IMG/VR virus record: IMGVR_UViG_3300037312_000757
Origin: a virus
Lineage: Duplodnaviria; Heunggongvirae; Uroviricota; Caudoviricetes
DNA: 64,000 bases
Strand: one strand, 5' to 3'
Position 1 is the first letter of the stretch, and every line of letters begins with the position of its first letter. Below the pieces are notes generated by a model. That model searched no databases. It saw only the letters and a list, made by a program, of their open reading frames with translations, and had not been told where the DNA came from. The position numbers were made by a program, and so were the translations under genes. Below are positions 1 through 49,555 of this stretch, piece after piece.

Positions 1-245
1 GAATCGCAACCACGATTGAAAACAGGCAAGTCTTCCATTCGTTTAATACTTGAAACATCAATAGTTTGATGATCCAAATTCCATGAAGCTGGGTTTGTTG
101 GATCATCTTGGCCAAATCCGTCGCAAGAAAAGTTGCAACCCCAGAAGCGAATCCATACCGTTGGGACGCCAGTGTATCGACCTTCACCCTGGAAGGTGTC
201 ACCGAAGATTTCGCTGTACTTGTATTTTTTGATATGTGTTGTCAT
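1..245 (-). CDS. queE: 7-carboxy-7-deazaguanine synthase (radical SAM QueE-like), N-terminal part; runs off the window
   Basis: Absent from the ORF track. Manual translation from the ATG at 245 gives MTTHIKKYKYSEIFGDTFQGEGRYTGVPTVWIRFWGCNFSC...GCD, the QueE EIF..QGEG..G.P..F(I)R..GCN..C signature. The ATG overlaps the upstream TAA. Confidence 0.88.
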   Translation of the reverse strand, partial: MTTHIKKYKYSEIFGDTFQGEGRYTGVPTVWIRFWGCNFSCDGFGQDDPTNPASWNLDHQTIDVSSIKRMEDLPVFNRGCD

Positions 246-3067: not shown

Positions 3068-4183
3068 TTAAATGCCCAGCAACGCGTTATACATCTTATA
3101 CGCCTTGGCATATTCGTGTAAACGTGTCTTGTTGAACTGGTTAATTTGACTCTTGATGGAATCGTAATGCGTCATCGAGAAGCGAATCTTCTTAACCAAT
3201 TCTTCCTTATGTGCCAAGTAAGCATCAAAGCTTTCTGTCCATTCTGATGGATACAGGAAGTTGTTGAAGCCTTCAAAGATCTCAGTATAGCTGAGTCGAT
3301 TTGGCACCAACGAAATGTTCATGGTCATTGGTGCTTCCATGCATGAGGAAATACCAAATGTTTCCTGCAAGTTTGCGCTGAATGTCAACTTACTTTGGCA
3401 AAGCAATGCGTGATACTCAGCCTTCGTCAAACGTTGCTCTTGGCAAGTCACGAATTCGTATTCTGGCAGGGATGCCTTCAGATCTAGGAAGATGTCATGC
3501 TGCTTTTCAGGAGCAATGCGATGCGGGAAGAGGATCATGTCCTTCTTGTTGGCACACGCACCAGAATCTTGAAATGCTTGCAAGTGTGCAATCAGACCTT
3601 CGTGTGGTTGACCTGACAGCATCATTCGATTAAGAATACCTGAAAGGTTGGCATCAGGATCCACATAGTCACCAAATACACCATCGAAGAACAGTTGTTG
3701 ATGGAATACGGTTGCGTAAATGTTCTTGTCGAGTGCCCAGAAAATTGCTTCTTCTGTGCTACGTGCCCAACGCTTGTCTTGAATCAAACGGCCAAGAAAG
3801 TCTTGTGGGTCGTACTGACCAGCATGCCAAATACCATAAAGTTCAGCCTTGATACCAAGCAAGTCAAGCATGTACTTCGTTTGAAGGATGACTGGATTCC
3901 AGGCATCAGTGAACAGGAACTTGTCACCATCCTTGATTTCACCTTCTGAGATCAGCTTTGCAATCTTGATTGACTGCTCACTCTTCCATTTGTTTGTACC
4001 AGCAAAGTTAATGAACGCGCCCGGGGTTGTCAGCTGTTCTTTGTCGTCACCGACAATGTTCACCACGTCAACGTCGACGCTGTAGTCTTCTACGTGCTTG
4101 CGAAGGGCGGTGGGAATACCTTCCAGCCACTCGCAAGTGTAACGGTTAGGAAGGGACTCAAGTGAAACTACGTAAATTGTCAT
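3068..4183 (-). CDS. GT-B fold glycosyltransferase-like protein
   Basis: ILFPHRIAPEK and SANLQETFGIS (GT4-like E-x-F-G donor-binding motif); WHAGQYDPQDFLGR. Confidence 0.7.
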   Translation of the reverse strand: MTIYVVSLESLPNRYTCEWLEGIPTALRKHVEDYSVDVDVVNIVGDDKEQLTTPGAFINFAGTNKWKSEQSIKIAKLISEGEIKDGDKFLFTDAWNPVILQTKYMLDLLGIKAELYGIWHAGQYDPQDFLGRLIQDKRWARSTEEAIFWALDKNIYATVFHQQLFFDGVFGDYVDPDANLSGILNRMMLSGQPHEGLIAHLQAFQDSGACANKKDMILFPHRIAPEKQHDIFLDLKASLPEYEFVTCQEQRLTKAEYHALLCQSKLTFSANLQETFGISSCMEAPMTMNISLVPNRLSYTEIFEGFNNFLYPSEWTESFDAYLAHKEELVKKIRFSMTHYDSIKSQINQFNKTRLHEYAKAYKMYNALLGI

Positions 4184-4590
4184 TTGTTTACACTGTTATA
4201 TGAATGATCTTCAATTGGATACCAGCCAATTTTGTTTAATGCCTCGCGGACTTTAGCAGTAACGTAGCCATATTCAATATTTGCTCGGTAATTGCTACAG
4301 TACCAATCCATGTAATCTTCGCTGGTGCCATGGAACTCATTTCTGAGATCTGCAATTACACCGCCCATCGCTCTAAAGCTGGCGCCCCAAGTTCTATGTT
4401 CGAAGTCTTCAGTCAACGCAAACTCAACCTGTTCGGCGGTTGTTGGCAAAGAAGCATCGTATTTCTTGTACCAATCAACGTTGGCAAACGCAGTCCATAG
4501 TTCACAGCAGAAGTCAGCATCAGCCATAAGTTGAATGAACTCAGGATACTTCTTTACGTCTTCTGTAAAGTCTATGAACTGCTCAGTCAT
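4180..4590 (-). CDS. phage hypothetical protein
   Basis: Start MTEQFIDF (4590) just after the upstream stop; WGASFRAMGGVIADLR...DYMDWYCS; stop overlaps the next start. Confidence 0.7.
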   Translation of the reverse strand: MTEQFIDFTEDVKKYPEFIQLMADADFCCELWTAFANVDWYKKYDASLPTTAEQVEFALTEDFEHRTWGASFRAMGGVIADLRNEFHGTSEDYMDWYCSNYRANIEYGYVTAKVREALNKIGWYPIEDHSYNSVNK

Positions 4591-4592
4591 GA

Positions 4593-5042
4593 TTAGTCCA
4601 GATAAAGACCGCGAGCGTTTGATGATTGTGGGCCGAGATTCACAGGAGCGGCAACTTGGATGACAGGATAAGTCATCAAAGCACCATTCTCGCCATCTTC
4701 GCTGACTTCGATTTGCACCCAACGACCAGGATAACGGTTATTGATTTGACCATACAAATCATCAGACATCATCTCACATGACTTGTAGTCGAGTTGAAGA
4801 ATAGCATCCTTGCCATATAGATTTTCCAGCCAACGCTTGAACTGGATGAATTCGATATCACGATCATTGTGTGTCACTTCAATAGTAACACGGAAATGAA
4901 ACATATGGCGATGTGGATGGCCCAGGAAGCTCACATCATATTCATCGCCGGTCGCCAGGTTAGGATCAGTAAGAGCAGCCGGATACTTGTGAACACCTTC
5001 CTTTTGGAAGGCAACGAAGATCAGTTTGTTAGGTTGTGACAT
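4593..5042 (-). CDS. QueD/PTPS-like T-fold protein with LxxxHRHxF motif (possible DpdL-type CDG decarboxylase)
   Basis: FLGHPHRHMFHF, DRDIEF, SCEM, EVSEDGENGA; lies in the folE/queE cluster. Confidence 0.75.
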   Translation of the reverse strand: MSQPNKLIFVAFQKEGVHKYPAALTDPNLATGDEYDVSFLGHPHRHMFHFRVTIEVTHNDRDIEFIQFKRWLENLYGKDAILQLDYKSCEMMSDDLYGQINNRYPGRWVQIEVSEDGENGALMTYPVIQVAAPVNLGPQSSNARGLYLD

Positions 5043-6873: not shown

Positions 6874-7506
6874 ATGAAAGCATTGATTTTAAACGGTTCA
6901 CTTCGCAAGGAAGAGGCCCAGTCAAATACGACAGCTTTGAGTCTCATGCTTGCTGACGAGATGAAAAAGTACGATGTCGAAACAGAACATGTATATTTGC
7001 GTGACGTAGACTTATCCCCAGGCGCCAAGCTAAAACCTCAAGAACCAGACCAAAGTCCTGAGCTCTTCAAGAAAGTCCTGGAAACTGATATTCTCGTTTT
7101 TGCTACACCAATTTGGTGGTGTAGCCATTCAAGCTTGATCCAGGCTGTTATCGAGCGTCTGTCATGGGTTGACGACTACTATATCGACAAGGACTTCAGT
7201 CCTCTTTACGGTAAAGTGTTTGGTTGTATCGTTAATGGTGCTGGTGATGGCGTACAGCACATCAACGCATCACTCTTCAACTGGGCATCGCAGCTAGGCT
7301 TCATAATTCCCCCTGAGGCTGGCTTAAACTACCTTGGCGAGGACGGTGAGAAGAACATCAGAGCTAGTAAGACCACAATGATGAAGCTCTCCAAGACTGC
7401 TAGAAACCTGGCATTCTTTGCCGACGTTTCCACTACCCAAAAGCTTGGCTTAGAAGTGCAAACGGAAAAGACAACACCATACACAGGTGTTAAGGTAAGC
7501 GAATAA
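6874..7506 (+). CDS. NAD(P)H-dependent FMN reductase / flavodoxin-like protein
   Basis: LILNGSLR, SNT, DILVFATPIWW, LYGKVFG. Confidence 0.85.
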   Translation: MKALILNGSLRKEEAQSNTTALSLMLADEMKKYDVETEHVYLRDVDLSPGAKLKPQEPDQSPELFKKVLETDILVFATPIWWCSHSSLIQAVIERLSWVDDYYIDKDFSPLYGKVFGCIVNGAGDGVQHINASLFNWASQLGFIIPPEAGLNYLGEDGEKNIRASKTTMMKLSKTARNLAFFADVSTTQKLGLEVQTEKTTPYTGVKVSE

Positions 7507-7550: not shown

Positions 7551-8303
7551 TTAACGACGACGTGCTGGAAGAATATAGTTGTACTCTGCGTGATCAGTTG
7601 TTACAGCAACCAGCAATGCGCCCTTGCTTGTGATACCAACCTTGTAGTCGTTACCGTCAGCTGACTTCAGGATCGACAGGAACTGGGAAATTGGCCACAA
7701 CAGTTCGCCCTTCAGCTCACCTGTAATTGTTTCTTCGAATACCATGCTTGCACGGTGTGTTGCTGAACCTTCTTCACCGATTGCGAACACCAGTGAACCA
7801 TCCTTCGTCTTCACTGAGAAGAACTGGTCAAACTGTGAATACAGACCGGCCAGACCTTGGAATTCCTGGATCTTTGCCTTTGCTGGTGTGAATTCAACGT
7901 CCCACTTAATGTCAGCAACGAGTGGTTGATCACCAACCAGTTGTGCGCTCATCAGGCGGAAGTTTGCACCCAGGCCCTTTGCATCGCGGAATTCGAATTC
8001 TTCTGGTGTTGACTTACCATTCATGTCACGACGTGTAACGTTGAACGTGGCGTCATCAGTCTTGTATGACGCAAAGTTCAGCAGACCGTTCAGGAGTTGC
8101 AGGTTAGCAACACCAAATTCACCGACCAGATCAGCTTGAGCTTCTTTTGTCTTTGCCTTGATAATCACTGACTTGTCAGCGTCAACTGCTTCGATGCGTG
8201 TTTCATCAGCAGTACCAGTAACCTTGATCTGCTCGACGAAACCCAGACCACCAATCTTCTTCACGATGTCTTGAATGACATTCTTAGTATTTGTGTTGCT
8301 CAT
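7551..8303 (-). CDS. putative DNA polymerase sliding clamp (gp45-like)
   Basis: 250 aa, alternating beta/alpha pattern, C-terminal YNYILPA, position downstream of the DNA polymerase. Confidence 0.6.
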   Translation of the reverse strand: MSNTNTKNVIQDIVKKIGGLGFVEQIKVTGTADETRIEAVDADKSVIIKAKTKEAQADLVGEFGVANLQLLNGLLNFASYKTDDATFNVTRRDMNGKSTPEEFEFRDAKGLGANFRLMSAQLVGDQPLVADIKWDVEFTPAKAKIQEFQGLAGLYSQFDQFFSVKTKDGSLVFAIGEEGSATHRASMVFEETITGELKGELLWPISQFLSILKSADGNDYKVGITSKGALLVAVTTDHAEYNYILPARRR

Positions 8304-33980: not shown

Positions 33981-34484
33981 GTGCGCATGTTCCTCTTCAA
34001 TTTGCTTTGGCGCTGTCTTGCAATCTGGAGCGATGCTCCTCCGACCTTAGATGTGAATACGATGCCATCTAAATGTTCAAGTTCGTGCAAAAAAACATCT
34101 TGCATCGATACCTTGCAACGATTCTACAACAAAATTGCCAGTTGTGTTTTGATATTTGCCAGTTATTTTTTCTGGCCGTTTCACACCCAGGTAAAGAAGT
34201 GGGAAACTTAGACATCCTTCCGTCCCAGATTGGGCTTCCTCTGAGACTTCCAGAATTTCTGGGTTGTAGCAAGTGATGAACGTGCCATCTTGCTTCTGCA
34301 TGACGAAGAAGCGCTCGCTAATACCAACTTGGGGAGCGGCGAGACCAATGCCACTACTTGCTTGCATCGCCTCTACCATTTGACCTTCGAGAGTAGATCG
34401 TTCTTCTTCAGTCGACTGGCTGAAATCATACTCAGTCGTTTTCTGCTTCAAAACAGGGTTATTCTCGTCTACTAATTTGAGCAT
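33977..34484 (-). pseudogene. def: peptide deformylase with a 1-nt frameshift in a homopolymer (artefact or slippage site)
   Basis: GIGLAAPQVG and EGCLS are in frame. HELEHLDG appears only if the A7 run at 34089-34095 is read as A6. The corrected ORF ends in an ATGA overlap with clpA. Confidence 0.85.
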
Positions 34485-34839
34485 TCGATAAGTTGCTATC
34501 TAAAATGGCGCGCACTTTATTGATTGCGCTTTCAGCTATTCTAGCACAATTTGGCACATTGCCTAGATGCGTGATGTGCCGTATGTCAAATCTTTCTTGC
34601 AAAGTGGCTTGCCAAATCTTCTGGCGTATGTTTGCCACTTCTTCAAAAGTCATCGTGTTTTCTTTTCTAACGCCAACCTCCTGATCATGCAGGTAGTATT
34701 CGGCGTTCATGATCTCAGTATCGATCTGTTGGGTATAGCCGGCGCAGTCAAGAATGTCTCTCGACTGCGCATGGACTGAAAAGCTGATGAAACACAATAG
34801 AACGGCAAAAATTCGCACGGTTCCCTCCGGTGTAATCAT
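34459..34839 (-). CDS. hypothetical exported protein
   Basis: Signal-peptide-like N-terminus ending in VHA; two Cys in the predicted mature part. Confidence 0.6.
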   Translation of the reverse strand: MITPEGTVRIFAVLLCFISFSVHAQSRDILDCAGYTQQIDTEIMNAEYYLHDQEVGVRKENTMTFEEVANIRQKIWQATLQERFDIRHITHLGNVPNCARIAESAINKVRAILDSNLSNAQISRRE

Positions 34840-34874
34840 TCACTCACCAGATGATTACACCGTTGGAAATAAAG

Positions 34875-35789
34875 TCAATAGTCGAGGTTTTGGATTTCAG
34901 CTGCGAGTGCTGAATTGACAGAATCAGGCCAATGCATGTTCAGCTCAACGAAAAGGTCCCCACGGACCTTCGTGTTCATTACTGACATGCCGTGCCCTGG
35001 GATACGAATGCGCGTGCCTGGCTTTGTTCCAGGACGAATGGTGATGTCGAATTCGGTGTCATCGATCGTACCAATTCGAACTTGCGATCCGCCGAGAAGA
35101 TCCAGCACGTGAATGTCTTTCTTCAGAACCAAGTTCTGAGCTTCACGTATGAATTCTTTGTGTTCGGTGACTGTAATGTGAACGTAAAGGTCGCCAGCAG
35201 GACGGCGAGTGTTTCGACGTGAACCAGCTGCCGCACAGCGAATCTTCTTACCAGTGTCGATACCAGCAGGAATGTTCAACAACACTGAGCGACGTTCACC
35301 GTCGATGGTGTAGGTGACAGTGGTCTGTTTACCCTTGAACGCTTCTTCTAGGGTGATTTGCATGTCGAAGTATGCGTGCTCGTTTGCTCGTTCGTATTCG
35401 TAATCATAGTAGCTTTGCCTACCTTGATTCGTCTTACGCATCCATTCATCTGCATCATAGGACCAGTTGGCGTTTCGGTCAGCTTCCTTGAAGTCTTTGA
35501 AGATGTCGTCCCAGTTATAGCGCCGTCCCGTCGAGTATTGGGAGTCGTTGTCATTGAACTTAGTGCTGTACTTGGAACGACGCTTACGGTCATAGACCGC
35601 GCGCTTTTCTGTCGTTTCGACAGTCTCGAACGCTTCTTTCACACGTTTGAAATTCTTCTCAGCTTCCTCGATGTTATCGGGGTTCCGATCCGGGTGCCAT
35701 TTCATGGCAAGCTTGCGATACGCCTTCTTGATCTCGTCGTCGTTCGCAGTCTCGGCTACTCCTAGAATTTCATACGCACTTTCGTTCAT
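34875..35789 (-). CDS. DnaJ/CbpA-type co-chaperone (no zinc finger)
   Basis: J-domain KKAYRKLAMKWHPDRN; C-terminal ITLEEAFKG, IPAG, GDLYV, GDLFV. Confidence 0.92.
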   Translation of the reverse strand: MNESAYEILGVAETANDDEIKKAYRKLAMKWHPDRNPDNIEEAEKNFKRVKEAFETVETTEKRAVYDRKRRSKYSTKFNDNDSQYSTGRRYNWDDIFKDFKEADRNANWSYDADEWMRKTNQGRQSYYDYEYERANEHAYFDMQITLEEAFKGKQTTVTYTIDGERRSVLLNIPAGIDTGKKIRCAAAGSRRNTRRPAGDLYVHITVTEHKEFIREAQNLVLKKDIHVLDLLGGSQVRIGTIDDTEFDITIRPGTKPGTRIRIPGHGMSVMNTKVRGDLFVELNMHWPDSVNSALAAEIQNLDY

Positions 35790-36190
35790 TTGGCTTTTTT
35801 GTCAGTAGTCGCTGGGGTTGCCACCGCTTGCGGGGTGCCACTTTGTTGCGACTTTAACACATCTGCCAAATAATCAATAGTCTTCTTTTGTTCGAGAATG
35901 TATCGACGAAGTTCCTGCACGTTTGAGATCATGATCTCCATATTGGAACGATCAAGTACGTAGAACTGGGCCGTAGGGTTGGCCTGAAGTTGTGACTGGA
36001 AAGTACCAAATGTTTGCGCAGTAACCAACTGATACTTCATGTTTTGCAAGTTAGTTGGTGTAGGAACAGGGATTGAAACTGGTGGACGATCAGCAATCGT
36101 AGTCACTGCGACTGGTTGCTGTGTTGCACAACCAGCCATAACGGCAACTGCGCCAATTACTGCCAGCCATTTACTGACGTGACGCATCAT
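35786..36190 (-). CDS. o-spanin-like lipoprotein
   Basis: Lipobox VMAGC followed by a Pro-rich segment; overlaps the i-spanin end. Confidence 0.7.
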   Translation of the reverse strand: MMRHVSKWLAVIGAVAVMAGCATQQPVAVTTIADRPPVSIPVPTPTNLQNMKYQLVTAQTFGTFQSQLQANPTAQFYVLDRSNMEIMISNVQELRRYILEQKKTIDYLADVLKSQQSGTPQAVATPATTDKKAK

Positions 36191-42254: not shown

Positions 42255-42610
42255 TGCCAAGTTTAAGGAGTTCTGCCTGGGTTTGATAGACTCAGACTAT
42301 TATCAGTGAGTAATTGATAGTCTTATAACCTCCATGAATATTCCTGGAAGGATGACAATATCTTGGTATCTTCCTCAGAGATGGTTGATAGGAGGAAGTT
42401 ATTGAGTATAACCACTATGGGGAATTTGTGGAGTTCTCTCTGGGTTTCGTAATCATCTAGAGTGTTGATTGATTAACCTCCATGAATTGTCCTATGAACA
42501 ATTGATCTCATAGATGGTTATATCTGAGTTGTTTGTGGGGAAGGAACCACTAATGGGGATATGGTTATGTGGGAAAGCCACCAGTGGATAGTGGCTTTGT
42601 TGTGTGGGGA
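42255..42610. repeat. non-coding G/T-skewed region with short repeats (CTCAGA/TCTGAG, TAACCTCCATGAAT x2, AACCACTA(A)TGGGG x2)
   Basis: Repeats read directly; no credible ORF. Confidence 0.55.
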
Positions 42611-46044: not shown

Positions 46045-46917
46045 TTAGAAACCAGTTACCATAATCGACATATTGGCACTGGAACCAATAACTGTCACTG
46101 TCCAGCCCGCCGGCAGAACTGTAGAAAGATCACACAGAAGTGTTGTATTCGCCGAAACGGTCACATTGTTCAGATACGCATTCGCTGCACTAGCTGCACC
46201 ACCATTTGTGAAGTTCACAGAAATAGTCTGATCAGAACCAGATGAGTTACAAATGATCAATGAATTGACAGTTTCAGTCTTACCTGTTGGGACTGTATAT
46301 ACGACTGTAGAAGAGGTCGGCATCGCACCAAAGTACAGGCGTTGAATGTTTGAGGAGCCATTGCCAGAAACGTTAATAGTGACGCCAGTAGCACTTGCCG
46401 AACCCACTAAGCTACCACCATTGAGAATAACCATCTCAGTTGAAATCACCACAGTCTGGCCAGCAGCCACAGAACCATTTGAGAAAATAGCATTTGCAGC
46501 ACTAGCAGAACCACTCTGAGGAACAATATTTAGATTAACTGTAATGGCTGAACTAGTAGTATTCACCAATGTGATCTGAGTGAGCAACGTATCCTGACTA
46601 GCAGTTGCCAATGTAGCAGATGAAGTACCCAATACACCCTGATATGTCAGAACTGGAACTACTGATGACCCATTGGCGTTTGACCATGTCAATTGATTAC
46701 CAGTGCTTACTGACAATACTTGACCAACACCAGGTGTGACTGTAGGCCAAATCAGACCATTCAGAGCAATCTGAGTGGATGAAAGACTGAGAGGAGCAAC
46801 AGTACCATTGCCATCCTCCACAGTACGAAGCGTTGAGTCAAGTCCTGCACCCGTATTAGTGAGCTTCAACAACTCCTTATACGAATCCATCACTCGACGA
46901 TTGAATAATGATGGCAT
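46045..46917 (-). CDS. fibre adaptor-like structural protein (paralogue family A)
   Basis: Start MPSLFNRR with AGGAGG RBS; YKELLKLTN...GLDSTLRTVEDG.G module plus two tandem beta domains. Confidence 0.7.
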   Translation of the reverse strand: MPSLFNRRVMDSYKELLKLTNTGAGLDSTLRTVEDGNGTVAPLSLSSTQIALNGLIWPTVTPGVGQVLSVSTGNQLTWSNANGSSVVPVLTYQGVLGTSSATLATASQDTLLTQITLVNTTSSAITVNLNIVPQSGSASAANAIFSNGSVAAGQTVVISTEMVILNGGSLVGSASATGVTINVSGNGSSNIQRLYFGAMPTSSTVVYTVPTGKTETVNSLIICNSSGSDQTISVNFTNGGAASAANAYLNNVTVSANTTLLCDLSTVLPAGWTVTVIGSSANMSIMVTGF

Positions 46918-46979
46918 TCTTTCCCTCCTAATGAGATATAATACCATCAATATTTATGGTGAACCTTACAGGATATTAC

Positions 46980-48900
46980 AACCACTATTGCTCAGAAGAA
47001 CTATATACCATCTTCCTCCTCAGAGGAAAGAACTCTCCATCCTCAGAGGAAAGAAACATGGCACCCGAGATTCTTTTAGAAAACTCGAAATTCTTTTAGA
47101 AATCCCCCTATAACGACCTTCCACCCGAGATTCTTCAATTCTCCCTCAGAGGAACCAACTACCATCCTCAGAAGAAAATACTAACCACCTCCACCCCTCG
47201 AGGAATCCTCAGAGGAAAGAACTCCAATAACCATCTTCCCTCAGAAGAACATAACCACAATTTCTTATACCCTCAGAGGAAAACCACAAAAAACATTTAC
47301 CAGCCACTAAAATCAATTACAAATCACACTTATGGCTTAAAATCAATTACCACCCTCAGAGGAAAGAACCGGTCATATACCATCCTCAGAGGAAGATAGT
47401 TTGTTGAATACATTTCCTCAGAGGAACTATCTTTCCTCCTCAGAGGAAGAAACCTGGTTTACAACTTGAATGCCACTTTTCCCCGAAAGAGTCCTACCAA
47501 GTTCACAAAAATATTGACGACACAGACAAAGAACACTATGGTGACGTGATTTTCGTTAATATGATGTACACACGGCGTCATCCTTTTACCATCTTTGATT
47601 CATCCTCAGAGGAAAAGATGAACTTCATCCTAGTTTCACCATTTCACCTACTGTTTCGTTATCGTGAATGACAGTTGGTGACGGTTCGCCTAACCGTTCA
47701 AATACTGTTCCATTACGAAAAAACGCGTCATCGCGGTATCGTTAACATGGCATTGAATAAGCATTGCTAAATATCATCACGAATATTTCATTCATGCTTC
47801 AAAATGTGTTCTAAACGATGCACCATGTTCATATTCCTTTCATCCTCTGAGGTTTCCTCAGAGTCGCTATCTGAGTTGTTCCTCTTCCTCCTCTAGTCTT
47901 TTCATTCACTCATTCTGTCCTCTGAGTAATTTTCATTACCACAGTTTCTAATCCTCTTTGATCTCTGAGGATTATCACTACTGTCGCTCTCATTGCTTTT
48001 ATTATCTGAGTTGGTATTGCTGTTCTCTTAGGAAAAAGTCTGTATTTAATTTTGCGTCTTTTAGTGACGTATAACAGTGAGTGTTATCTGAGATGTGGTT
48101 ATCTGAGAAATGGTCGGGGCCATTATTCTTGATATTGGTGATTTTCAAGTCTGAGGTGGTATTATCATTTAAGCTCTGAGGGATTTTCGCGGTGAAGTTT
48201 TTCTCAGAATTGCGGTAATCATCTGAGTGGGTGTTAAGTTCTTGGTGATGTTTGCGCGGGAAATTTATTTGGTAGCTCCTTCAGATTGGCTTTTCTTTTC
48301 GCGCGTGGTATTTGAATTTTGCGGAGAATTATTTCCAGAATGGTGCGGAGAATCGAACTGTGATTATGATGAAAACCTTTGAAAACCGTAGAAGAGCCTT
48401 GGTGGGGAAGCAGTGTGGGATCTGAGTGCAGAGCTGAGCGTGGTAGCGGAGAAGCGTGGTGAGCCTTGTGCGCGTGATGGTGCGGGAAATGATGTGAGGA
48501 GAATGACCCATAGAATGGGGAAGAGAATGGGGAAGGGAATTGGCTCTTGCGCGTGGGGAGCATTTTCCAGAATGAAGTCTAGAATGGGAGGGTGAAAAGA
48601 ATCATTTTGCCACTGAAATTGGGGAATGGCTGTATAAAAATTTCGCCAGCTTTACGCCAAATTTCGGGATTTAGGGTTTTGGCCCGAAAGACTTCCTGGA
48701 AAAAGCCAAAATTCTGGTCGCCGTGAAATCGTGAATTCCAGAAAATGACATGTCAAGAAATCGCCTATGGAGCGATTTTCACGTTTTCCAGAATGAGTCT
48801 AGAATTGAGTCAGAATATCATCTAGAATGAAACCAGAATAGAAACAGAAACCGCCATACCAGCCATCTACCACTCTTTCACCAGAATATCTTCTATGGCG
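46980..48900. repeat. ~2 kb non-coding locus with oppositely oriented CCTCAGAGG / TCTGAG repeats and a skew switch; candidate replication origin
   Basis: Ten exact CCTCAGAGG copies at 47018-47612; about 11 reverse-oriented TCTGAG copies at 47844-48426; AGAAT repeats at 48500-48890. Confidence 0.8.
47514..47542 (+). promoter_or_regulatory. sigma70-like promoter inside the non-coding locus
   Basis: TTGACG-N17-TATGGT with no downstream ORF. Confidence 0.4.
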
Positions 48901-48985
48901 AATTTTTCTTTGAAATTTTCTTTTGAAAGAATGGGCCATTATTAATGGCCCATTTATGCAGCAAGATAGTTAGTATTACAAACTA

Positions 48986-49555
48986 TCAAGTGGTTGGTAG
49001 ATTATATCCATTAGCGTCTGGTTGATTGGAACCTACTGGTGATATCCATGTTACGTTTGTGATTTGATCGTAATCGGTCATAGCATTTATTTGAGTAGCC
49101 AGAGTTGCCTTTTGTTGTAGGCAGGCCAGTATTTGTGCTTTACCGTCTCTGCCTACTTGTTGGATCTGGGTGGTGTTGTGACTAAGATATGACCAGGTAT
49201 TGGTTGAGTTAGCGCACCAGAATGGGGTTGACCAGGATGTTTCGTTTGCTTGGACTGCCAGTACTGAGTCGAGGACTGAGGCTGAGAGGTTCTGTTGGTC
49301 CAGGTCTTCAGCGGGATAATGTAGCCAGGTTCCTGTAGCGTTTGAGTTGAAGCCCAGATAGATTTCGCTCTTGCAGGCGTCGTTCATCTGTTGGATCTTC
49401 CATGCTTTGTGATCGTCTAGTGAGTAGATTGGATCTGGTGTATTGCCATCGGATAGCCATGTTTCGTAATCATCCCAGTGACGAGAGCCTTGCGGGATGA
49501 TTTCATTTGTATCCTCGTTGATAACGATAGTTGGATCTGCTGTTAGTTTGTACAT
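48986..49555 (-). CDS. tail fibre assembly chaperone-like protein (DUF4376-like)
   Basis: Y..WL.DGNTP.P; YP...DQ.NL; FWC; H...QIQQVG.D; downstream of a fibre gene. Confidence 0.7.
   Translation of the reverse strand: MYKLTADPTIVINEDTNEIIPQGSRHWDDYETWLSDGNTPDPIYSLDDHKAWKIQQMNDACKSEIYLGFNSNATGTWLHYPAEDLDQQNLSASVLDSVLAVQANETSWSTPFWCANSTNTWSYLSHNTTQIQQVGRDGKAQILACLQQKATLATQINAMTDYDQITNVTWISPVGSNQPDANGYNLPTT

Follow-up and report, generated by a model that had tools for sequence, protein, structure and literature searches.

A conserved locus of ~2 kb, free of genes and poor in ORFs, is best explained as a composite non-coding control region of an uncultured jumbo phage of the T4 superfamily. It lies in a stretch of 64,000 nucleotides, analyzed as a whole and hereafter called the window, which forms the start of a genome of ~524 kb. 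The left arm of the locus (arm B) very probably constitutes, as judged from its sequence, a DNA-level docking array for a putative protein, while the right arm (arm A) looks like a broken, codon-structured and decaying small ORF on the gene strand. The two arms are different things and the locus does not consist of two mirror-image binding arrays. We tentatively consider that it serves as a unique docking platform between divergent late promoters, which would control or insulate the late transcription of tail-fiber cassettes.

Layout and conservation of the locus

The features of the locus and its borders are the following, in window coordinates:

46951 to 46956, minus strand: TAAATA late-promoter word (CATAAATA), preceding the 290-aa cassette gene by ~30 nt
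46984 to 47612, minus strand: arm B, with 12 boxes and one degenerate copy
47613 to 47843: core, free of boxes, with blocks conserved in relatives
47681 to 47697: core hairpin ACGGTT-CGCCT-AACCGT, from sequence and alignment
47768 to 47773, plus strand: antisense TAAATA (GCTAAATA), candidate late promoter pointing rightwards into arm A
47844 to 47863: inverted pair CCTCTGAGG-TTT-CCTCAGAG, an 8-bp hairpin if present in plus-strand RNA
47864 to 48240, minus strand: arm A, in which TCTGAG on the plus strand corresponds to AAC-TCA-GAT (Asn-Ser-Asp) codons on the gene strand
48043 to 48048, minus strand: gene-strand TTAAATACAGAC block, at the GC-skew flip
48110 to 48123, minus strand: ATGGCCCCGACCAT, conserved small-ORF start (MAPTIS...) and palindromic word
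48250 to 48900, plus strand: distal part, G-rich with many G runs, CGCGTGGTA words and four AGAAT runs
48930 to 48954: hairpin with a perfect 12-bp stem (AATGGGCCATTA / TAATGGCCCATT), directly after the DUF4376 gene

No frame of the locus contains an ORF of more than 112 aa. The exact box CCTCAGAGG occurs 11 times per 64 kb, ten times on the plus strand and once on the minus strand at 47844, against 0.25 copies expected and a maximum of 2 in dinucleotide-shuffled sequences; every copy lies within 47018-47852 and none was found beyond the locus in the window. All positions given for this word in the original prediction were exact, and the other elements that it named are present as well: the CCTCAGAAG variants (at 47166 and 47239), a motif-free core with a plus-strand TAAATA (47768), the inverted pair at 47844-47863, 11 plus-strand copies of TCTGAG in the right arm and a cluster of AGAAT (15 in 48325-48883 for 0.94 expected). 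It had also rightly set CRISPR aside: a CRISPR array has identical, regularly spaced repeats of 24-48 bp separated by unique spacers of much the same length, whereas the boxes measure 13 bp and follow each other at irregular distances of 22-166 bp. The locus matched no known RNA family of Rfam at the gathering score or at E<=5, and no tRNA or tmRNA was found.

A syntenic array, for which a search in relatives had been proposed, was found in six metagenomic relatives that share the same ~2-kb ORF-poor locus, its layout, the order of its parts and its GC-skew inversion, and whose flanking protein is 67-83% identical. The seven loci are flanked by tail-fiber, chaperone, LamG, SPRY and unassigned cassette genes, all co-oriented, and gene content varies between relatives on either side; at its distal border, locus L011 retains a remnant of the L008 SPRY gene, from its 3' end. 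Sequence L127 is the same as L016 and adds no locus, and pattern scans of IMG/VR and metagenomes for further relatives returned only coding repeats or a locus already known. Among isolated phages, neither megablast nor blastn found a DNA match to the locus, the 290-aa and 722-aa flanking proteins had no match, and Sinorhizobium phage Phosso, whose DNA polymerase is 53% identical, contains zero copies of TCCTCWGAGGA.

Several other identities were considered and rejected. The region 42255-42610, a candidate 'smaller sister' locus, carries a different repeat family (TTCATGGAGGTTA / AACCCAGAGAGAACTCC) and one degenerate box. A neighboring gene encodes an Mtd_N domain, but a diversity-generating retroelement is contradicted by the lack of a reverse transcriptase in the flanks and of a template-like repeat within the locus. 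Coding under code 11, in which the long neighboring genes are open, or with one reassigned stop was dismissed since the relatives share no common open frame.

Two different arms

On the gene strand, the arm B box has the consensus TTCCTCWGAGGRT; it contains the 11-bp palindrome TCCTC-N-GAGGA between asymmetric flanks and is quasi-palindromic over its 13 bp. The box logo was drawn from 103 sites. Each locus holds 12-17 boxes in uniform orientation on the same helical face. Their spacings are irregular but comprise whole turns (2-16): distances between adjacent boxes are multiples of 10.4 bp, with a pooled Rayleigh power of 44 (74 being possible) against a maximum of 13.6 under the jitter null, and this phasing holds locus by locus (P<=0.03 in each). 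In 7/7 loci the boxes keep their absolute helical register over 576-815 bp, or 55-78 helical turns, at a period of 10.40-10.50 bp (R=0.78-0.94, each P<=0.005); in the window itself, the period is 10.45 bp and R reaches 0.91 over 586 bp (P<0.003). Box sequences are invariant, but spacer identity amounts to only 41-59% between loci whose neighboring genes share 88% identity. With a period-3 power of ~1 and only 35/96 spacings divisible by 3, arm B is considered non-coding. The 'protein-loading centre' initially proposed is thus well supported for the left arm by the single helical face used across the array in seven independent loci.

In L006, L008 and L011, the TAAATA of the next gene directly adjoins the final box. 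In L015, small genes are inserted in the proximal end of the array and extra boxes flank them. The flanking and inserted genes matched no DNA-binding family, and the small genes inserted in the relatives' arrays, which have neither a Pfam family nor a homologue in the window, were rejected on these grounds as candidates for the binding protein.

The copies of CTCAGA in arm A behave otherwise. Their spacings are divisible by 3 in 43/54 cases and no helical phasing was detected; being unphased, confined to a single reading frame and codon-like in structure, they look like the remnants of a small gene. The description of the locus as bipartite with mirror-oriented binding sites is consequently not supported. 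A 1-nt deletion right after ATGGCCCCGACCAT breaks the frame of the small ORF in the window, and its 97-aa form has no homologues. Purifying selection on this ORF was rejected because substitutions between L008 and L011 display no codon-position bias. A genome-wide polar word (Chi/KOPS-like) that would flip at the locus was also discarded: counted outside the locus, TCTGAG exceeds CTCAGA on the plus strand on both sides (27 versus 10), with no flip. The apparent 'mirror symmetry' links a docking array and a decaying small gene that are unrelated to each other, which calls for caution in reading similar loci.

The remaining parts are well conserved. The distal part, arm A and core together are 87.8% identical between L008 and L011 and 71% between L008 and L006, values that equal those of adjacent coding genes; the right arm and distal part lie downstream of the antisense word, without an ORF, and are conserved like neighboring genes. 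The distal part, whose AGAAT runs are spaced by 11-12 bp in the window, is predicted to form the body of an antisense late RNA, and the hairpin at 48930-48954 is likely a two-way terminator and the end of this RNA. No conserved RNA fold was found for the distal part (consensus of -14 kcal/mol over 562 columns, covariation term ~0). As read from the alignment, the site of the core hairpin is ATGGT.C/GGAACCAT or ATAG/CTAT in relatives, with two stem pairs changed on both sides together; the hairpin is missing from L011 and L015.

Late transcription and competing explanations

Arm B is flanked by two divergent late-promoter words of the T4 type. One, ahead of the 290-aa gene (ATG at 46917), serves the downstream receptor-binding cassette, and the opposite-pointing one stands in the core. 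TAAATA is found ahead of 17/49 minus-strand genes in the window and occurs per 64 kb 28 times on the minus strand versus three times on the plus strand; besides the core copy, another of these three precedes the sole plus-strand gene. The core carries an anti-strand TAAATA in 7/7 loci, at an independent position in L015, from which a non-coding late RNA of ~1.1 kb is predicted. Transcription from this core word is predicted from 6-8 nt alone. The TTAAATACAGAC block reads TAAATA in three loci and TAAGTA in three, which makes it doubtful as a promoter, and sigma-70-like matches number 4 for 7.7 expected from shuffling. The core is flanked by box-bearing repeats and was considered as an invertible-promoter switch; this was rejected because its orientation is identical in 7/7 loci and for want of a nearby recombinase gene.

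In the control of late transcription that we tentatively favor, a sequence-specific and probably dimeric protein of the phage (or host) would bind the boxes. Since these lie on one face, the bound dimers could contact each other or a common scaffold and would assemble into one large nucleoprotein complex. Such a complex would act locally on late transcription by setting how active the two divergent late promoters are and/or by forming a boundary, a road-block to the DNA-tracking sliding clamp of T4-type late transcription and to read-through. The core promoter would produce a G/U-rich non-coding late RNA of ~1.1 kb, extending from ~47780 to 48955. T4 late promoters, however, are not known to require upstream sites. 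A single target of 600-800 bp carrying 12-17 sites would also be more usual for an origin, a copy-control locus or a centromere than for an operator, which speaks against late control.

A T4-type replication origin appears unlikely. The phased boxes would here be iterons for an initiator or loader, and the core transcript would form a persistent R-loop in the flank, which is G-rich with many G runs, and prime DNA synthesis. Such an origin agrees with the unique, phased and iteron-like array, with the promoter word inside a conserved core, with RNA leaving the center G-rich both ways and with the distribution of G3+ runs, peaking at 48001-49000 on the plus strand, and of C3+ runs at 47001-47500. 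The AGAAT runs of the window at 11-12 nt spacing also fit, as does the lowest GC content (33%), located at the skew flip (47925-48074); this minimum lies ~300 bp from the nearest arm B box and is not markedly A+T-rich. The skew inversion for which a bidirectional origin had been proposed is real and conserved in relatives, and its sign on the plus strand (C>G then G>C) is that of an origin, but its sign changes at ~48000, ~150 bp to the right of the 'switch point' originally placed at the inverted pair, 47775-47999 being still C>G. The flip is purely local, plus-strand skew being positive on either side (42-46 kb and 49-53 kb). Within the 64-kb window, cumulative skew reaches its minimum at ~35 kb; the locus is thus not at the skew extremum of the window and the skew gives an origin no support. 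With a strength of +/-0.4-0.55, the local skew is sequence design, far too strong for replication skew. An origin is further opposed by the co-orientation of all flanking genes, by the presence of an adjacent initiator gene in 0/7 loci with no replication family matched, and by the small genes lodged within the proximal array end of L015. T4 origins also fire early, which sits poorly with a late-class promoter word. R-loop origins of the T4 oriF/oriG type combine a middle-mode promoter (MotA box and -10) with a downstream unwinding element; the promoter word conserved in the core is late-class only.

The register of 10.45 bp, absolute over 600-800 bp, would allow all boxes to touch one straight scaffold or surface. 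This property invites the idea, quite unlikely in our view, of a cis-acting genome-handling site (centromere-like, pac or positioning) with a ring or filament protein running along one DNA face. The number (12-17) and span of the boxes resemble those of the plasmid centromeres F sopC and R1 parC, and the array is unique within the window, but no partition ATPase, ParB-like, tubulin-like or terminase gene lies in the window or beside the relatives' arrays: ParA/ParB/ParR/TubZ-like genes were absent from the window and the relatives' loci, and the window ORFs scanned gave no terminase match. T4-type phages, moreover, package by headful without a strong pac site, and it is not obvious why a lytic jumbo phage would need a centromere. 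A wider proposal, which we also hold to be unlikely, is that the DNA serves as a straight track along which a rigid partner (filament, ring stack or surface) reads it, defining a new genome-handling site of half-megabase phages for replication start or for positioning and anchoring, equipped with a transcription shield. This shield would be built in, since transcripts that come in from either side are rich in C and poor in G, making them good substrates for Rho, and RNA leaving the center is G-rich. The absence of any present function, be it a graveyard of decayed cassette genes, a palindrome spread by slippage or a selfish repeat, is likewise quite unlikely. It would suit the broken, codon-structured ORF of arm A and its substitutions without codon-position bias, the SPRY gene remnant retained in L011 and the variable gene content on both sides. 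Random indels, however, would soon destroy a register that is kept in seven loci with different spacing series; the boxes stay invariant while spacers drift, the non-coding distal part and core are conserved like genes, and the locus is retained while its neighbors are swapped. Least probable of all is a function of the repeats at the RNA level, whether in a long non-coding RNA or protein sponge or through pairing of words of the SD/anti-SD kind. GAGGAUG words recall the CAGGAUG words found in CsrB-type RNAs, promoter words exist on both strands, the transcribed part is conserved and folding energies fall below those of shuffles (z=-5.2 on the gene strand of arm B, -4.6 for core and arm A). 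Low z-scores are nevertheless expected of any sequence with many self-complementary words, CCUC-U-GAGG is unable to form its own hairpin, neither a conserved fold nor covariation is seen in the distal part, and a 10.45-nt register over 700 nt is meaningless in single-stranded RNA. A sponge RNA of the CsrB/RsmZ type, an abundant small RNA that displays many GGA words in hairpin loops, was set aside, with no Rfam match even at E<=5 and a DNA helical register that argues against constraint at the RNA level.

Relation to known systems

To our knowledge, essentially no map exists of the cis-acting sites of jumbo phages of the T4 superfamily, origins and packaging signals included. The locus is unique and conserved across the clade, and its physical property of keeping the boxes on one helical face through rapid spacer turnover is precise and testable; its 13-bp box provides a defined bait for finding the binding protein.

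Plasmid centromeres offer one point of comparison. F sopC is made of 12 units of 43 bp, each with a 16-bp palindrome, and R1 parC of two blocks of 11-bp repeats around a promoter. The array shares with them its unique locus and its dozen or so palindrome-bearing boxes, which are uniformly oriented and occupy a single helical face, and the flanking of a promoter core by repeat blocks recalls parC in particular. It differs by the lack of nearby partition genes, by spacing that is irregular and not tandem, and by its occurrence in a lytic-type T4-like jumbo phage. The lambda origin, where the O-some assembles, contains four iterons of 19 bp, located within the initiator gene and adjoining an A+T-rich region. 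Its boxes are likewise dyad-symmetric, direct and phased, with half-sites (TCCCTC...GAGGGA) that look alike, but the present array counts 12-17 boxes with a 1-bp center, has no initiator gene and is 400 bp away from the spot of lowest GC. The pac region of SPP1/SF6, organized as pacL-pacC-pacR and bound by the small terminase, covers ~250 bp next to terS. Two repeat-bearing arms around a core, short phased boxes and a presumed placement of the DNA on a protein ring are common traits; the locus described here, in contrast, occupies 2 kb among tail-fiber cassettes and its second arm is no binding array.

T4-type phages provide two further cases. The PeSL (promoter-early stem-loop) cassettes of T4-type phages are reportedly dispersed units of 50-70 nt combining an early promoter and a hairpin. 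Both are non-coding modules found in T4-type genomes at the borders of swappable gene cassettes, but here a single unique 2-kb locus carries late-promoter words and a phased array. Finally, the iterons of phage T4 oriE are 12-nt, evenly spaced direct repeats (PMC3016281). The resemblance includes a cluster of short direct repeats in a T4-type genome, an adjoining promoter, a role that is still undefined and conservation at syntenic places in relatives (PMC3016281). Unlike oriE, the present locus has no adjacent repE-like genes and its promoter word is late-class; even spacing of 11-12 nt is limited to the AGAAT runs of the window, whereas the boxes are 13-bp quasi-palindromes spaced irregularly by whole turns (2-16) over 600-800 bp.

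Genomic setting and conservation of the locus

The window encodes a family-B DNA polymerase sharing 53% identity with that of Sinorhizobium phage Phosso and 49% with that of Agrobacterium phage Atu_ph07, both giant T4-superfamily myoviruses, together with a ligase, a Lon-like protease and a long series of tail-fibre, LamG and chaperone genes. Almost all genes lie on the minus strand, hereafter the gene strand. Between 16000 and 32000, the plus strand carries 30 copies of the heptamer TACCACC (48 in the whole window), which reads GGTGGTA on the gene strand and presumably reflects a repeated peptide motif of the large structural genes found there. The locus under study carries no ORF exceeding 112 aa in any frame between 46951 and 48985 and is bordered by two genes:

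46045-46917, minus strand, gene for a 290-aa protein, family not assigned
48986-49555, minus strand, DUF4376 fibre-chaperone-like gene

Homologues of the 290-aa protein (61-83% identity) are encoded on metagenomic contigs, the longest of which reaches 523,837 bp. Six distinct loci from these relatives were compared (L006, L007, L008, L011, L015 and L016). The syntenic array sought in relatives was recovered in all six: each has, at the corresponding place, some 2 kb poor in ORFs, with its parts arranged in an unchanged order. In the gene direction, the parts common to all seven loci are:

1. C/A-rich distal part (48250-48900 in the window)
2. AACTCAGATA array, called arm A (47864-48240)
3. box-free core (47613-47843)
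4. array of 12-17 TTCCTCTGAGGATGG boxes, called arm B (46984-47612)
5. late promoter of the next gene

The flanking genes vary, with SPRY or LamG upstream and one to three unrelated genes downstream; since gene content differs on both sides, the locus is kept while its neighbours are exchanged. At its distal border, L011 contains a non-coding remnant (3360-3470) of the 3' end of a SPRY-domain gene, of which L008 has the intact form (4413-5012); this shows that cassettes are lost and replaced at this border. Nothing resembling the locus was found in isolated phages, and Phosso contains zero copies of the arm B box. A second, dispersed repeat family, separate from the CCTCWGAGG boxes, occupies the minus-strand gap 42255-42610 upstream of a 217-aa cassette gene, with two copies each of TTCATGGAGGTTA and AACCCAG(A/G)(G/C)AGAACTCC; the corresponding gap of L006 (7340-7570) contains both words again.

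The relatives also share the skew inversion. In the window the predicted change of sign exists, at about 48000 and not at the inverted pair (47844-47863) where it had been placed. The flip is confined to the locus: the plus strand has a positive skew to either side of it, in 42-46 kb as in 49-53 kb, and the 64-kb window reaches its cumulative GC-skew minimum near 35 kb (about 34000-36000), not at the locus. The genes on either side of this minimum share one strand. Runs of G peak on the plus strand at 48001-49000 and on the other strand at 47001-47500; transcripts running outwards from the centre of the locus would be G-rich both ways, and those running in from the genes on either side would be rich in C and poor in G. 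Rho acts readily on untranslated RNA of the latter kind, and R-loops form more easily where the non-template strand is G-rich; either effect could be relevant here.

Helical phasing of the arm B boxes

The repeats of the original prediction are borne out. All 11 copies of CCTCAGAGG in the 64-kb window fall within 47018-47852, against a mean of 0.25 and never more than two in dinucleotide-preserving shuffles. Also present as described are the variant boxes, the core free of boxes, TAAATA on the plus strand at 47768, the inverted pair, 11 copies of TCTGAG on the plus strand and the cluster of AGAAT. The last comprises 15 copies at 48325-48883 (0.94 expected), arranged in four runs of three to five spaced by 11-12 bp; several read TAGAAT, a good -10-like hexamer. 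This sub-array is the window's own and is not common to the relatives.

The 103 arm B boxes of the seven loci yield the logo TTCCTC[T>A]GAGG[A/G]T, in which an 11-bp palindrome, free at its centre, is held to a single orientation by asymmetric flanks. Neighbouring boxes are irregularly spaced (20-261 bp in the scanned intervals), yet by whole multiples of about 10.4 bp, in classes of 21-23, 30-33, 40-44, 51-53, 61-66, 73, 83-85, 94 and 103-105 bp. For the pooled spacings, the Rayleigh power at 10.4 bp amounts to 44, where 74 is the highest value possible and 2000 jittered controls reach at most 13.6, and phasing is significant in each locus separately, with best periods of 10.3-10.6 bp. The absolute register holds over the full 576-815 bp (R = 0.78-0.94 at 10.40-10.50 bp, P<=0.005 in 7/7 loci), at the helical repeat of relaxed B-DNA. 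Only 35/96 spacings are divisible by three and period-3 power stays at the non-coding level, near 1. Between L008 and L011 the adjoining genes are 88% identical and arm B aligns at just 41-59%; their spacing series differ, and boxes and helical register persist. Because random indels would erase such a register, it is maintained by selection. It makes sense only for double-stranded DNA contacted on one side, and arm B is very probably a DNA-level docking array for a putative binding protein.

Arm A and the predicted antisense RNA

Arm A had been regarded as a mirror-oriented set of binding sites, a view that its structure does not support: the CTCAGA copies lack helical phasing and are codon-structured instead. 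Their spacings are divisible by three in 43/54 cases (P = 4e-12), nearly all copies of a given relative share one frame as AAC-TCA-GAT, and every third base of their flanks is A. In L006, L008 and L011 period-3 power is at coding level (4-9); L015 (about 3) and the window (2-3) give lower values, and the distal part and core lie near 1. The small ORF starts at a conserved ATGGCCCCGACCAT (MAPTIS...) and has a length of 91 aa (L006) or 97 aa (L007); stops interrupt it in L008 and L011, and a 1-nt deletion shifts its frame in the window. No homologues were found, and the arm A substitutions that separate L008 from L011 are not biased towards any codon position. No stop-codon reassignment opens a frame common to the relatives. 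These sequence features suggest that arm A is a rapidly decaying gene whose peptide would be rich in Asn, Ser and Asp. The two arms nevertheless share the CTCAGA hexamer in opposite orientation, and in every locus the k-mer content of arm B resembles that of arm A and the distal part taken together and reverse-complemented (cosine 0.22-0.29 vs 0.06-0.11); chance seems an unlikely source of this sharing.

TAAATA, the T4 late promoter core, precedes 17 of the 49 minus-strand genes of the window, mostly as (C/A)ATAAATA. The minus strand has 28 copies in all, the plus strand only these three:

6840, plus strand, just upstream of the sole plus-strand gene (6874-7506)
plus strand, within a coding region
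47768, plus strand, in the core of the locus

Every relative has one such anti-strand word in its core, five sharing the window's aligned GCTAAATA site and L015 carrying CATAAATA at a different core position; beyond the cores, about 85 kb contain 10. This predicts a late RNA of plus-strand sense that would start near 47780, take in arm A and the distal part, and finish at this feature:

48930-48954, perfect 12-bp hairpin, predicted end of the RNA

The predicted RNA has neither a conserved ORF nor a conserved fold, and conservation of the DNA it would cover, compared over distal part, arm A and core, equals that of neighbouring genes (L008 vs L011, 87.8% identity, including 98% across 308 bp of the distal part; L008 vs L006, 71%). 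In three relatives the distal part contains a second (C/T)TGAAAA-N17-18-ATGGCCCCNACCAT module (L006 832, L008 5343, L011 3793), about 320 bp upstream of the copy starting the small ORF; ATGGCCCCNACCAT is also a palindrome with a 4-5-bp stem.

Possible functions of the array

Helical register and conservation disfavour both a function at the RNA level, which is very unlikely, and junk or selfish repeats, which are decidedly improbable. The long straight register and the number of boxes would suit a centromere-like, packaging or positioning site, but cognate genes are not in view, and such a role is improbable. Our tentative preference is for transcription control or insulation, because arm B lies between two divergent late-promoter words (46956 leftwards, 47768 rightwards) and boxes occur at cassette gene borders. 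In three relatives the final box is 2-4 bp from the next gene's TAAATA. In L015, two small genes without family are inserted at the proximal end of the array (7085-7339 and 7567-7869; 84 and 100 aa), each with additional boxes on its flanks, and in both the GAGG of a box doubles as ribosome-binding site.

A T4-type replication origin is rather unlikely: no initiator gene adjoins the locus, the window has its skew extremum at another place, and the promoter word belongs to the late class. In its favour are the uniqueness of the phased array, the promoter word within the conserved core, the G-rich outgoing strands and the precedents known from T4 itself, namely the iterons of oriE, R-loop origins that depend on promoters and origins located at compositional shifts (PMC3016281).
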